From contig OZ253553.1 of the NCBI GenBank assembly GCA_965262715.1, positions 1,216,001-1,280,000 on the forward strand: a DNA stretch of 64,000 nt. The letters are read 5' to 3'. Below are positions 4,482-9,235 of this stretch, in pieces (the first letter of the stretch is position 1; the number at the start of each line of letters is the position of its first letter). The position numbers were made by a program, and so were the translations under genes. This stretch comes from Bdellovibrionales bacterium (GTDB taxonomy: Bacteria > Bdellovibrionota > Bdellovibrionia > Bdellovibrionales > JAUICD01). Below the pieces are notes generated by a model that was not told where the DNA came from, made no database searches, and was given only the letters and a program-made list of their open reading frames with translations.

Positions 4482-4538
4482 GCTATATCCTTCACTGCCA
4501 TATAATAGTGTATATGTTAAATGTGTAGCGTACGTACA

Positions 4539-4606
4539 TAAAATATGGTGGTGGAGGGCTTTGTGTGGGTGCGGGGATATTTAAAGGTACAATAGAATAC
4601 TTGCTC
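4539..4606 (-). repeat. Degenerate copy 3 of the actF 3' end
   Basis: aatatggtggtggagggctttgtgtgggtgcggggatatttaaaggtacaatagaatacttgct aligns with about 8056-8119. Confidence 0.8.
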
Positions 4607-4647
4607 ATTTCCAATTCACCTTTATAAAAATCAATTTATTATATAAC

Positions 4648-4769
4648 AATTTATGTCAGTAAATTTTGATATTTGTGACAAAGAGGGTCATTCTCCTTTT
4701 ATTTATACGGCTTCAAATACTTTTTTTCAAACTTTCATCTCAATTGAAAAATGGTATACTATTTGCTTT
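4648..4769 (+). pseudogene. Ankyrin-like gene remnant, homologous to 6722-6844
   Basis: gtcagtaaattttgatatttgtgacaaagagggtcattctccttttatttat versus gtcagtgagttttggtatttgggacaaaaatagtcactcttcttttatttac. Confidence 0.65.
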
Positions 4770-4933
4770 CAATAAGTAGTATTGTAGTTTATGCATGTTT
4801 AATTTTACTCGTAAAAATAATGAGTTAGACATACACTTAACTTCACAAAGTATGATTTTTTTACAAAAAACCTCTAAACCTATGAAAAGTTTACAAGGTT
4901 ATAAAATATCATTTTTAAAAAAGGAGATCTTTT

Positions 4934-5437
4934 ATGAAATTTAAGCTAATATTTTTCACATTTTTATTTACTTTTATCTTTTCTCAAAATTTACTTGCTC
5001 AAACTTTAAATGAAAAAAATCAAGCTATTGATACTGCCAATGATAGTTGCCCAGCTTTATTTTATGCAGTTATAAATAAAGAGGCAGATATTGTAAGAAC
5101 TTATCTTGAAGATGGAGCAAACCCCAATAGGTCTTTAGAAAGTTGTCCTTTTTCTTCGTTCAAATTAAAATTACCATCATCTACTCTCCCTACTGGAGCT
5201 TTTTTCCGTAATCTATTTCGAGAAGATATTTTTATCGATTATCCTGAAGGCACAACATTACTTCATATAGCTGCTTACATTACTGCTTATGGAGATTATG
5301 ATATCTACAATCTACTTCTTAAGCATGAAGCTGATGATCTTGTAAGAGATGAGAATTCTAATCCACCAAACATGTTCATACTTTCAAAGGCCTGTGTATC
5401 TCCTCACAGTTTAGAAATACAAGAATGCATATTTTAG
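4934..5437 (+). CDS. Secreted ankyrin-repeat protein
   Basis: Signal peptide; ALFYAV..IVRTYLEDGANPN and GTTLLHIAA..YNLLLKHEAD ankyrin motifs; AGGAG RBS. Confidence 0.85.
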   Translation: MKFKLIFFTFLFTFIFSQNLLAQTLNEKNQAIDTANDSCPALFYAVINKEADIVRTYLEDGANPNRSLESCPFSSFKLKLPSSTLPTGAFFRNLFREDIFIDYPEGTTLLHIAAYITAYGDYDIYNLLLKHEADDLVRDENSNPPNMFILSKACVSPHSLEIQECIF

Positions 5438-5572
5438 AGCTTATATGTATTAAGAAAGTTGCAAGCTTAAGCTTGAATATACTTATATGCTTCAAGTTGA
5501 TGGCCGACAAATGTAATTTAGAGCAATTATAATAAAAATTCAGTTATTTATAAAAATGTCCATGCTATATAT

Positions 5573-5738
5573 CGAATATGGTGGTGCAGGGCTTTGTAAG
5601 CACAAGGACCCTTTAAAGGCGCAATAGAGTGCTTACTTAAAAATGCATTACAAAGAATAAGAATAAACTTAAACTTAAACTTAAACTTAAACTTAAACCG
5701 CCTAAAAACATAGCCAGCTCAGTAAATCCAAAAATAAT
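5573..5738 (-). repeat. Degenerate copy 2 of the actF 3' end, with internal (AAACTT)n expansion
   Basis: aaaccgcctaaaaacatagccagctcagtaaatccaaaaataat matches actF aaaccgcctaaaaacatggccagttcagtaaatccaaaaacaat. Confidence 0.9.
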
Positions 5739-5753
5739 CTCTCTAATTAATTA

Positions 5754-6698: not shown

Positions 6699-6721
6699 GT
6701 CTAAATATTCAAAAGTATACT

Positions 6722-7002
6722 AATTTTGGTCAGTGAGTTTTGGTATTTGGGACAAAAATAGTCACTCTTCTTTTATTTACAATGCCTCAAATACTATTTT
6801 TTCAAGCTTTTATTCAAATTGCGAGATGGCATATAATTTGCTTTGGGAGTATGAAGCAGATAACAGCATTCTTGATGCAAATGGCAATTCACCACATATA
6901 TTAGGAGTTGGAATACCTTGTCTTACTGATCAGTTAGAAGTAGTTAGCTGTTTTTCAGGAATTGGTCAACATTTCGAACCTCCACAAAATGCCAAAAGAT
7001 AA
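6722..7002 (+). pseudogene. 3' fragment of an ankyrin gene, paralog of 4934..5437
   Basis: YNLLWEYEADNSILDANGNSPH..C....LEVVSCF aligns with YNLLLKHEADDLVRDENSNPPN..C....LEIQECIF; no signal peptide or N-terminus. Confidence 0.7.
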
Positions 7003-7190
7003 AACCTAGTCGAGATAAAATAATAGCAATTATTATGAATTAAGTAAAAAACTCATTTTGTCAGTGAGTTTTGATCTTTATGATAAAAATAATAATGATA
7101 ATAAGTGTAATAGAACTTTAAATCACTAATTAAATTCGTTCAACTTTCATTGAAACACAAGTTTTTACACCCATCATATTATATTGTAAA

Positions 7191-7288
7191 TCAAATGTGA
7201 TGGTGGAAGGCTTCGTGAGTGTGAGGGTCCTTTAAAGGAACAATGGATGCTTACTTAAAAAACACATTATTAAAGAATAAAAGTAAAA
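7191..7288 (-). repeat. Degenerate copy 1 of the actF 3' end
   Basis: tcaaatgtgatggtggaaggcttcgtgagtgtgagggtcctttaaaggaacaatggatgcttacttaaaaaacaca aligns with 8054-8130. Confidence 0.92.
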
Positions 7289-7308
7289 TTAGGTCACTTT
7301 AGCTATTT

Positions 7309-7698
7309 TTAATTAGACGGAATATGTGACTGATCTAAATAAGAAGAAATAAATTTTAAAAATATATTTTTCTGTTTTGTATTTTTTATTGATATGATAA
7401 ATTCTTTATCCTTCTTAGAGTGTTTTATTTGATCCTTTAAAATATTATAAAAACTTTCACTACTGTGACCCAATATTCTTGCAGCTTTAGCTATAAGTTC
7501 TAGATGAGGTATAATTTTGTCATTTTCAATATCACTTAAGTATTTTTTAGAAATATTTAATTTTTTGGCTAAATCACTTTGAGTGATCTCAAGTTGTTTC
7601 TTTCTTATAGCCTTTATAACACTGCCTATAGTGAGAGGTCCACATAAACTCTCTACCCATTGAATATGTTCATTAAGTGTCTTATTTACTGTAGTCAT
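7309..7698 (-). CDS. XRE-family HTH antitoxin (HigA-like)
   Basis: GPLTIGSVIKAIRKKQLEITQSDLAKKLNISKKYLSDIENDK. Confidence 0.88.
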   Translation of the reverse strand: MTTVNKTLNEHIQWVESLCGPLTIGSVIKAIRKKQLEITQSDLAKKLNISKKYLSDIENDKIIPHLELIAKAARILGHSSESFYNILKDQIKHSKKDKEFIISIKNTKQKNIFLKFISSYLDQSHIPSN

Positions 7699-7977
7699 GT
7701 TTTGAAACTCTTTCTATTCTTATAAATCGATTATCATTATCTTCTTTTTCTTTATAAGCTCTATATATACTCGATAATATTTATTTAGTCTTAAGGCTCT
7801 ATATCCTCGCCACTTGCCTTTAAGCTGATGATCTTTGTACCCTTTAGTTTTCAGTGTTGTTATTTTGTCATTTTTTGTTTGAATATCTTTTAAAAATTTT
7901 AGATACAACCTTTTTATATCTAAAGGCAACTTCTCAAGTTGTTTTCTTATTTTCTTATCTTGTATAACGTATATCAT
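7682..7977 (-). pseudogene. RelE/HigB-like mRNA interferase toxin with a probable 1-nt frameshift near 7769
   Basis: GYKDHQLKGKWRGYRALRLNKYYRV motif; the alternative frame continues IYRAYKEKEDNDNRFIRIERVSKHDYSK* and overlaps the antitoxin ATG. Confidence 0.8.
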
Positions 7978-8053
7978 ACTTTATATCTTCTCTAAAGCAA
8001 ACACCAACAATGAATTGTATGATTATTGAGCGAATTATCATAATATTTACATA

Positions 8054-9235
8054 TTAAATGTGGTGCTGGAGGGCTTCGTGAGTGCGAGGATCTTTTAAAG
8101 GAACAATTGGATGCTTGCTTAAAAAACGCATGACAAAGAATAAAAATAAACTCAAACCGCCTAAAAACATGGCCAGTTCAGTAAATCCAAAAACAATATG
8201 TCCTTCATTGAAATTAGGATAAACAAGCCAATAAATATCTACATACTGCATCACTAAAATCAAAATGGCAATAAGGCTTAACCAATCTACATTTCTCTTT
8301 GCAGCCCTTGGAAGCAGTGCCAAGAAAGGCACAATGAATTTAAAAAGCAATAAAGAGTAACTGATGGCCATCCACCCTCCATGCGCTCTATGTATAAAGA
8401 AAATAGTCTCTTCTGGAAGATTGGCATACCAAATCAACATAAACTGCGAAAAAGCAATGTAAGCAAAAAAGATAGTGAAAGCAAAAAGTAGTTTGCCTAA
8501 GTCATGAATGTGATTTTGATTGACCAAATTATCTAAAAGCCCTCTCTTCATCATCCATACTGTAAGCACAATCAAAAAGGCTAAGGCAGATTGAAAAAGT
8601 CCTGCAAAACAATACACACCAAAAATAGTGGAAAACCAATGTGGGTGTAAGCTCATCAAATAATCTACACTAAAAAGTGAATAAGAAATGGCAAAGAAAA
8701 GTAAAAACCCAATGGACCATCTTCTACTTTTATGAGTTCTATTCTCATCTCCATCCTCATCCTGCTTTAAAGAATGACCTACAATAATTTTTGCCAGTAG
8801 TATCCAGCCACCGAAAAATATCACTGTTCTGATAACGAAAAAAGGTAAATTCAAGTAAGGTTCTTTTCTCTGTAAAATAGGGTCACCCGCCACCACTTCT
8901 TCGTGCAGCCACTCAAATAAACTATCCCCTCCAAAAAGGATCAATATCAATCCCAATAAAAAAGCTATTGGTAAAAAAGAGGTCAACCCTTCAGCTATCC
9001 GACGAACTGTAACGCTCCAGCCCGCATTAACCGTATGCTGAATGGCTACAAAAAACAATCCCCCTAAAGATAAACTCACAAAATAAAAAAAGCTGGTTAA
9101 AAAAGCCGGCCAAAAAGTATAAACACGCCCTGAAATATGTAAAGCAAATGCAGTTATAGCAACTAGTAAAGAAAGAAAAATAAACCATTTTAAATAACGA
9201 GGGAAATGCATTGGCTTTGGGTTTAAAGTAGACAT
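8054..9235 (-). CDS. actF: Alternative complex III membrane subunit ActF
   Basis: Polytopic; DYLMSLHPHWFSTIFG, HDLGKLLFAF, FSQFMLIWYANLPEET; act cluster context. Confidence 0.92.
   Translation of the reverse strand: MSTLNPKPMHFPRYLKWFIFLSLLVAITAFALHISGRVYTFWPAFLTSFFYFVSLSLGGLFFVAIQHTVNAGWSVTVRRIAEGLTSFLPIAFLLGLILILFGGDSLFEWLHEEVVAGDPILQRKEPYLNLPFFVIRTVIFFGGWILLAKIIVGHSLKQDEDGDENRTHKSRRWSIGFLLFFAISYSLFSVDYLMSLHPHWFSTIFGVYCFAGLFQSALAFLIVLTVWMMKRGLLDNLVNQNHIHDLGKLLFAFTIFFAYIAFSQFMLIWYANLPEETIFFIHRAHGGWMAISYSLLLFKFIVPFLALLPRAAKRNVDWLSLIAILILVMQYVDIYWLVYPNFNEGHIVFGFTELAMFLGGLSLFLFFVMRFLSKHPIVPLKDPRTHEALQHHI

Follow-up and report, generated by a model that had tools for sequence, protein, structure and literature searches.

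Three orphan copies of the actF 3' end separate toxin–antitoxin and ankyrin cargo behind an intact host gene

Downstream of an intact actF gene, three orphan copies of its 3' end (tails 1 to 3, numbered outwards from actF) separate blocks of toxin–antitoxin (TA) and ankyrin cargo. The tails most likely represent scars left by insertion with long target duplication; to this reading we give about an even chance of being right. This kind of insertion is said to go back to Nobusato et al. 2000, and we know of no mechanism put forward since 2000 for its mobility-enzyme-free form.

The actF locus and its orphan tails

Coordinates such as 8054..9235 are positions in the window, the whole stretch of 64,000 nt that was analysed. 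Its host genome (2.94 Mb) is called G000, and G001 is a sister species. The 393-aa product of the host gene was identified as ActF by its match to PDB 6f0k_F (E = 4e-76), and the gene was full length beside all three orphan tails. Along the minus strand the order of actF, TA modules, tails, ankyrin gene and lipoprotein ORF was as an earlier note on this DNA had given it, with blocks of 749, 1448 and 962 bp between successive copies of the actF end. The features are as follows.

8054..9235, minus strand: actF, the intact host gene, last in the alternative complex III operon (393 aa)
8037..8197, minus strand: working copy of the duplicated target in actF (last 47 codons with their stop, plus as much as 17 nt of the DNA that follows; the span is the extent of the tail matches)
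7720..7977, minus strand: TA module 1 toxin, RelE/YafQ-like, with a frameshift towards the 3' end (TIGR02385, E = 7.9e-6, below the cut-off)
7309..7698, minus strand: TA module 1 antitoxin, HTH_3 (PF01381, E = 1.5e-13)
7173..7287, minus strand: tail 1, probably the youngest orphan copy of the actF end (83.6% over 116 nt, extending 17 nt beyond the stop)
6694..7091, plus strand: ankyrin-family debris B, including an 89-aa ORF at 6733-7002 (77.5% over 129 nt to 4642-4769)
6265..6663, minus strand: TA module 2 toxin, DUF4258 (PF14076, E = 9e-6)
5754..6251, minus strand: TA module 2 antitoxin, MqsA family (TIGR03830, 69.6 bits, cut-off 61.8; PF15731)
5566..5738, minus strand: tail 2, the longest and most substituted orphan copy (70.7% over 174 columns)
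4934..5437, plus strand: ankyrin-repeat gene, 167 aa (PF00023, E = 1.1e-8)
4624..4786, plus strand: ankyrin-family debris A; some 20-35 nt separate its start from the edge at which tail 3 is truncated
4535..4605, minus strand: tail 3, the shortest orphan copy (79.7% over 74 nt)

The same-orientation copies of the actF end at three sites, first seen by the earlier note, are real and confined to this locus. E-values against the 2.94-Mb genome were 1e-23, 8e-20 and 7e-8 for tails 1, 2 and 3, respectively, the alignment of tail 3, the weakest of the three, scored 64 where the best of 300 shuffles reached 35, and the same genome yielded no further copy of the actF end. The direct repeats measure 71-174 bp and are genome-unique, with local copies only. 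All three tails finish at or past the stop, while their coding part ranges from 66 to 141 nt and defines no common crossover point. A hexamer expansion of 5.8 copies lies inside tail 2 at 5664-5698. The antitoxin stops do lie close to the tails, 21 nt before tail 1 and about 10-15 nt before tail 2. A role of the tails as promoters or terminators was rejected, the 22 promoter-like and 2 terminator-like sites comparing with 22.7 and 1.1 in shuffles.

The cargo shows signs of decay and local repetition. In toxin 1, the RxSKH[DE]Y ending common to three paralogues sits in another frame, and paralogues of its antitoxin were located at G000:1370604 and G000:307986. Toxin 2 carries an in-frame hexamer expansion of 16.7 copies (an RY repeat) and has a predicted near-consensus promoter at 6698-6671. 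Debris A and the ankyrin C-terminus are both homologues of debris B. The description of such pieces as ankyrin remnants holds in part: they gave no Pfam match, but the 89-aa ORF matched the adjacent ankyrin protein at its C-terminus (37% over 41 aa, pairwise E = 1e-7). The 293-aa lipoprotein-like ORF had no convincing family, its atlas matches (under 0.9) serving as leads only. Outside their genes, the three TA module 1 family members of G000 shared no cassette ends; bracketing repeats were found at only 4 of 28 HTH_3 loci versus 12 of 300 random sites, and at none of three antitoxin 1 homologues in G001 within 1.5 kb.

Kinship of the tails and codon signature

The earlier note had taken the farthest tail to be the most decayed and read the array as a chronology. 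Over the last 68 comparable nucleotides, tails 1, 2 and 3 matched actF at 60, 50 and 55 positions, respectively, so that tail 2 is the most substituted and tail 3 merely the shortest. Tail 1, nearest actF, does appear to be the youngest. Tails 2 and 3 have four exclusive states in common, compared with at most two for any other pair. One of these is E387K, at a position that holds E in 72 of 104 homologue alignments. Blocks 2 and 3 moreover contain two homologous pieces in the same order. Together, the four exclusive changes and the homologous ankyrin debris suggest, as modest evidence, that tails 2 and 3 are sisters by local duplication, and that two insertions plus one local duplication, instead of the at least three successive integrations proposed before, would account for the whole array. 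The exclusive changes are all towards A/T, with roughly two expected from parallel change by a rough estimate. The overall distance between tails 2 and 3 (19/67) is as large as that of other pairs, and a tree of the tails had no supported branch.

The synonymous differences that had led to the view of the tails as former functional ends of actF are present in the alignments. However, a synonymous excess is expected even for copies born identical, because the working copy keeps changing synonymously. We therefore took as the null an orphan and a working copy that were identical at birth, and applied it to 10 cases hand-picked from alignments, under assumed mutation spectra. Tails 1 and 3 fitted this null (P = 0.34-0.67), as did six other loci, and tail 2 was borderline (P = 0.02-0.15), with few second-position changes (P = 0.011-0.027). 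The bias at actF thus mostly fits born-identical copies and gives little ground for former functional ends. In contrast, gyrB (10.5 synonymous of 15 differences, P <= 0.003) and speA (6 of 7, P = 0.003-0.014) exceeded the null, and the excess pooled over 8 loci was significant at P <= 0.003. This excess at gyrB and speA hints at exchange by recombination between different strains, and it speaks against copies identical at birth at some sites, where the two would instead derive from working alleles that had already diverged.

Similar scars in the genome and its relatives

We surveyed 1353 non-paralogous ORFs of at least 450 nt for displaced copies. The last 120 nt were copied downstream in 25 genes and upstream in 8, and the first 120 nt upstream in 18 and downstream in 10, compared with 4 and 3 for gene middles, the control among the same 1353 genes; some of these hits are paralogue fragments. 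IS1634 lay between gene and copy in 7 of the 25 downstream 3'-end cases. Unique single scars were found at gyrB (126 bp, 88%), a speA-like gene (162 bp, 88%) and the start of xseA (99 bp, 93%), with others at a SWIB gene and glmS. A putA scar (77 bp, 86%), mostly past the stop and thus largely non-coding, brackets a paralogue of TA module 1. In a young case at G000:2313900-2315080 the host gene end occurs four times around a short insert at 99.5-100% identity; G001 there has a gap of 28 nt, an empty site for this case (G000:2313962). Fresh tandem amplifications that include gene ends are also numerous, with periods of about 200-430 bp. A boundary repeat was absent at 4 of 8 tested cargo junctions, and the R-M block at actC/actD of G000 showed only a 20-nt match.

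Two further candidates were discarded. The 90-bp repeat of an apparent second triple array (G000:307406/308531/311640) looks like a piece of a toxin gene in decay, with a further, fourth relative at 1626869, and an 843-bp repeat at G000:2388933 consists of two copies of another IS-like gene and is not a target duplication.

G001 to G004 have a single actF end followed by different downstream genes. None of the 89 other actF loci had a tail, 36 of all 90 loci having less than 1.5 kb downstream. No empty actF allele, with one actF end followed by the DNA beyond tail 3, was found in the relatives compared, and for this reason the defining comparison is missing for the actF site; the thioesterase gene, used as an empty-site marker, gave no match with this query in G001, G003 and G004. 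In G001 an R-M pair separates actC from actD; on both sides of it lies an 86-bp repeat that covers the stop of actC and the start of actD. The two genes abut in G003 and G004, which represent the empty site for this insert. Scars of this type mark the ends and starts of many unrelated genes in G000 as well as the actC/actD junction of G001, while the other actF loci have no tail. For these reasons actF is not the special integration site that it had seemed, and with such scars common across the genome the locus is a clear example and not a new system.

The genome also contains 35 near-full IS1634 copies, the family being confirmed for 5 representatives (NF033559, 347-382 bits, cut-off 100). 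Target duplications of 50-1666 bp flank 27 of the 35; 8 exceed the published 514 bp. Of the 27 duplications, 24 start with A and 26 end with T. IS1634 copies in G001 have repeats of 308 and 761 bp.

Origin of the array and its closest known kind

In the favoured reading, insertion with long target duplication, foreign DNA would enter just past the actF stop and some 70-170 bp of target sequence would be copied in the process, which would leave actF whole and an orphan copy beyond the cargo. An older insertion may have brought the ankyrin module and TA module 2, with a single orphan tail at its edge. Local amplification of this unit would then have produced tails 2 and 3, a deletion later removing TA module 2 and the leading part of the tail from the distal unit. 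A younger insertion of TA module 1 would have added tail 1. That the antitoxin stop codons lie so close to tails 1 and 2 would be explained if deletions had pared away dispensable DNA as far as these codons. Insertion was probably catalysed by the host's own recombination or break repair working on the DNA that came in, and not by a site-specific integrase.

Islands placed by such an integrase at an attB in the actF 3' end, and since decayed as at tRNA genes, are highly improbable, even though a restored gene, displaced fragments and a tandem array fit the signature described in the available text of Islander (PMC4383910). As the earlier note had stated, the window holds no recombinase; the two tyrosine and two serine recombinase matches of the genome all lie outside it, and profile searches detected no integrase gene in or near any actF block. 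The blocks span only 0.75-1.45 kb, the tails have no common crossover point, no tail occurs in the 89 other actF loci, and four recombinase matches stand against dozens of unrelated targets in one genome. The genome has three reverse transcriptase matches, none of them close to the array, and these say nothing for or against RNA-templated insertion. The tails could instead be relic IS1634 target-site duplications, the element itself having since disappeared or given way to cargo, or its transposase having worked in trans. The abundance of the family, its long duplications in both G000 and G001, and several copies flanked by a duplicated host gene end arranged in the same way speak for this origin, which we nevertheless rate as very unlikely. 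No IS1634 end motif (up to 2 mismatches) and no tblastn cluster for the transposase were found in the window, IS1634 ends (CCTGA...TCAGG) were absent from the actF block junctions and 29 inspected non-IS junction pairs, and 18 positions at cargo-flanking host repeats had no solo IS end. By eye, the A...T signature was inconsistent in the best-preserved cargo repeats; the actF tail ends are too decayed to score.

An integrase-free Campbell-type capture, in which a circle or fragment with a working host-gene tail recombines into the recipient gene end and displaces the resident end, amounts to the former functional ends of the earlier note driven by general homologous recombination. It would account for the synonymous excess at gyrB, speA and in the pooled data, and for the borderline tail 2. 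Genes for ComEC and DprA are present, and most published cases of insertion with long target duplication come from naturally competent species (Furuta 2010, PMC2853133, available text). We consider it unlikely, given that tails 1, 3 and six other loci fit the born-identical null, that the test used hand-picked cases and assumed spectra, that the first repeat requires an earlier duplication, and that the putA repeat is mostly non-coding. Plain tandem duplication of the actF end and downstream DNA, followed by deletion and an independent arrival of cargo in the neutral DNA between the copies, would be in keeping with the fresh gene-end amplifications, the slippage repeats within the array and the partial homology of blocks 2 and 3. 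We rate it as quite unlikely: block 1 is a TA pair alone (749 bp) with no match to the other blocks, and the similarity of the copies ends some 17 nt after the stop (three comparisons of the DNA beyond fell within shuffle range). An assembly artefact is a negligible prospect: the copies differ by 12-26% with indels, and all 513 sampled 31-mers of window positions 4300-9300 were found in four runs of one sample, probably the source sample and thus not independent.

Taken alone, the actF locus, a scar of some age whose cargo is in decay, alters nothing in known biology. The genome combines many scars that differ in age, one of them a triple stack, with competence genes and a numerous IS family that produces the same geometry, and strain-level sequencing could therefore show if a host-gene tail travels along with the cargo. 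More speculatively, and with a low likelihood, the lineage may run integrase-free cassette arrays, in which a long target duplication makes a repeat at a gene end, and TA or defence cargo loops out with one copy of the host tail and re-enters gene ends of other strains by ordinary homologous recombination. Seeding might then be due to IS1634 transposases (duplications to 1.67 kb), stacking would be newest-first behind housekeeping genes with their last codons swapped, and the actF triple would be the clearest record, with gyrB and speA keeping the swapped-allele signal. In the available text of Furuta 2010 (PMC2853133), direct evidence is limited to amplification, with none on release or re-entry.

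A literature search, with most subscription journals outside its coverage, returned nothing on protein genes that bear a serial stack of this sort with TA cargo, and nothing on IS1634 duplications above 514 bp. In the available text on Islander (PMC4383910), tRNA and tmRNA islands likewise show an intact gene followed by displaced 3' fragments between cargo blocks. In contrast, the actF target is a membrane-protein gene without an integrase per block, its site is not reused in relatives, and its blocks of about 1 kb are separated by fragments of unequal length. IS1634/IS1549 elements also make long, variable duplications of host DNA, often at gene ends, of 8-514 bp in the available text (PMC2266710) versus up to 1666 bp in this genome; unlike them, the actF blocks lack a transposase and IS1634 ends. 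The closest match is insertion with long target duplication as set out in the available text of Furuta 2010 (PMC2853133), where genome-unique repeats of >30 bp span start or stop sites without any other mobile element. The actF locus resembles it in an insert under 20 kb without a mobility gene, a unique direct repeat of >30 bp across the stop with the host gene whole, an operon-like cluster as target, and repeats that can allow amplification. The published cases there are single and carry R-M genes, whereas actF has TA and ankyrin cargo, three stacked copies and old repeats (74-88%); R-M cargo, by which that study screened for its cases, is found at the G001 actC/actD junction and not at actF. 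The actF array is thus not an R-M case, but works like insertion with long target duplication and extends its cargo.

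Orphan copies of the actF end and their cargo

The genome under study (G000) is a single 2.94-Mb contig with a G+C content of 33.6%, of which the window covers positions 1216001–1280000. As the earlier note had proposed, three copies of the actF 3′ end follow the gene in its own orientation, and a search of the whole genome found none elsewhere. These orphan ends (tails 1–3) alternate with blocks of cargo:

8054–9235, actF, 393 aa, ActF, last gene of the alternative complex III operon
Block 1, 749 bp, RelE/YafQ-like toxin and HTH antitoxin (TA module 1)
7173–7287, same strand as actF, tail 1
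Block 2, 1448 bp, ankyrin-family debris and a DUF4258/MqsA pair (TA module 2)
5566–5738, same strand, tail 2
Block 3, 962 bp, ankyrin gene and more ankyrin-family debris
4535–4605, same strand, tail 3

The G+C content of the blocks is 26–30%, compared with 36–38% in actF, actC and actB. Both toxins look damaged: the conserved end of the TA module 1 toxin sits in another frame, and the DUF4258 toxin contains an in-frame hexamer expansion (×16.7, 6359–6458) that gives an RY run. Another hexamer expansion (×5.8) lies inside tail 2 at 5664–5698. Because the copies differ by 12–26%, which is not what misassembly makes, misassembly is an unlikely source of the tails, and the array is a real feature.

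Away from the array, 170-aa and 103-aa ORFs lie in tandem at 2170–3009, possibly as one split gene; the latter matches at least eight paralogues in G000 and, weakly, a zinc peptidase. A CRISPR-like array with a ∼60-bp period beside Cas-like ORFs (by-eye labels) occupies G000:482074–490645.

Order of events and origin of the tails

Over the last 68 comparable positions tails 1, 2 and 3 match actF at 60, 50 and 55, respectively, and the working actF of the sister species (G001) matches at 56 of 69, which makes tail 1 the youngest and the other two old. The proposed chronology therefore stands in having the nearest tail youngest and fails in having the farthest most decayed, as the most substituted copy is tail 2 and tail 3 is the shortest. 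Four states are common to tails 2 and 3 and absent from actF, tail 1 and G001, and other pairs share at most two. One of the four is E387K, at a position that is glutamate in 72 of 104 homologue alignments; all four run towards A/T, and a tree of the tails resolved no branch. Over 129 nt the debris beside tail 3 shows 77.5% identity with that beyond TA module 2, and ankyrin C-terminal sequence comes after both pieces. The exclusive states and homologous debris argue modestly for a simplest history, inferred from sequence, in which one old insertion behind actF would have been amplified as a unit, the distal copy would have lost TA module 2, along with the front of its tail, by deletion, and TA module 1 would have inserted later. 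This would require two insertions and an amplification rather than the at least three successive integrations suggested earlier.

Pooled tail differences number 15, 4 and 26 at codon positions 1, 2 and 3 (dN/dS 0.20), the third-position richness expected by the earlier note of former functional actF ends. A synonymous excess is, however, expected even for copies born identical at insertion, because the working copy goes on evolving. This null was simulated for 10 hand-chosen cases of the 18 codon-compared, using three mutation spectra, all of them assumed, at each of two constraint levels. At actF it gave P 0.38–0.67 for tail 1, 0.34–0.56 for tail 3 and 0.02–0.15 for tail 2, and at five other loci 0.08–0.60. 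Lower values were obtained for gyrB (P≤0.003), the speA-like arginine decarboxylase gene (0.003–0.014) and a pool of 8 loci (≤0.003). In the gyrB (L067) and speA-like (L068) orphan tails 10.5 of 15 and 6 of 7 differences are synonymous, more than born-identical decay predicts. These genes and the pool exceed the null, tail 2 is borderline and tails 1 and 3 fit it. The results thus point to recombinational allele swapping at some sites, whereas at actF the tails are not shown to be former working ends. Competence-related genes in G000 include ComEC and DprA. Born-identical copying also happens in this genome, as a young site (L184:400–1580; G000:2313900–2315080) holds a host gene end with a 170-bp repeat element in four copies of 99.5–100% identity, of which three form a tandem run and the fourth lies on the far side of a 230-bp insert; the G001 gap here is 28 nt.

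Gene-boundary scars across the genome

A survey of ORFs at least 450 nt long, taken from simple calls instead of a gene finder, kept the 1353 (out of 1871) that have no paralogue. In these, the last 120 nt were copied downstream in 25 and upstream in 8, the first 120 nt upstream in 18 and downstream in 10, and gene middles in 4 and 3. True cargo scars, orphan gene boundaries beyond inserted cargo, are fewer, because IS1634 lies in between for 7 of the 25 and several rows represent pieces of cargo that has paralogues. Clear unique scars occur at gyrB, the arginine decarboxylase gene, a SWIB-domain gene, glmS, the xseA start and putA. The putA repeat brackets a TA module 1 paralogue and lies mostly 3′ of the stop codon, so the copied unit is a gene boundary and not specifically a coding end. 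A 7-mer run adjoins this module (L065, near 650–750). In the 425 kb examined of the 2.57-Mb G001, an 86-bp repeat spanning the actC stop and actD start encloses an R-M pair; the two genes are directly adjacent in family members G003 and G004. Weighing against scar generality, no boundary repeat was found at 4 of 8 junctions tested and no more than a 20-nt match at the G000 actC/actD R-M block, and repeats bracketed HTH_3 genes at 4 of 28 loci versus 12 of 300 random sites.

The actC/actD junction hosts different R-M systems in the two species: a CfrBI-like endonuclease with two methylases, one of which is fused to HEAT repeats, in G000 (11655–15382), and a DpnII/BanI-like endonuclease with a methylase within the 86-bp repeat in G001 (L032:75–2203). 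The actD and actE genes overlap in G001 but are separated in G000 by 1.2 kb of unknown small ORFs (9878–11084), around which no flanking repeat was found. A 302-bp direct repeat (97%) brackets a 312-aa secreted-looking gene at 32647–34534, with no IS ends. At L185 (G000:1521378–1521872) a 450-bp spacer missing from G001 contains a second copy (53 bp, 85%) of the beginning of a gene labelled by eye as cytochrome oxidase subunit-like.

A DNA query found a single actF-end occurrence per genome in four family members, missing the G004 gene itself, which lay beyond its reach and was found by protein search. When downstream regions were compared as the earlier note had advised, a coding-tail copy longer than 26 nt was peculiar to the window's own row among 90 rows of actF loci that had 1 kb or more of downstream sequence (three genomes counted twice; 36 rows with less than 1.5 kb). 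With the same scar common at other G000 genes, actF is no special site of accretion.

Candidate catalysts and known systems

Matches in G000 to two tyrosine and two serine recombinases and to three RTs all fall outside the window, which is recombinase-free as first described. IS1634 is present in 35 near-full copies of at least four transposase groups (for example G000:130600–135600 (L037), G000:906575–911820 and G000:1495716–1501001). Perfect or near-perfect target duplications of 50–1666 bp (median 251) flank 27 copies, 24 beginning with A and 26 finishing with T; four others are without a junction repeat and four without an end pair by the search pattern. Eight duplications exceed 514 bp, the upper end of the published range of 8–514 bp (PMC2266710), and G001 copies have repeats of 308 and 761 bp. 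IS1634 elements also leave orphan gene tails. Neither the window nor any of the 29 cargo junction pairs that were inspected showed an IS1634 end, which leaves a connection with the actF blocks unsupported. The most promising leads are the IS1634 duplications, which reach 1.67 kb, and the surplus of synonymous differences in the gyrB and speA tails.

Literature searches of limited coverage turned up no paper on three such copies stacked behind one protein gene. Unlike island arrays as characterized elsewhere (PMC4383910), the actF array shows neither an integrase nor site reuse. Insertion with long target duplication, as defined by Furuta, Abe and Kobayashi in 2010, involves repeats that frequently span start or stop sites (PMC2853133). 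The array resembles the class described there in its repeats, size, lack of mobility genes and sparing of the gene, and differs in that its cargo is TA and ankyrin rather than R-M. No empty actF site was found among the family members compared, in which other genes follow the single actF end. Most likely, the actF array is an insertion with long target duplication, unusual only for its three-deep stacking.
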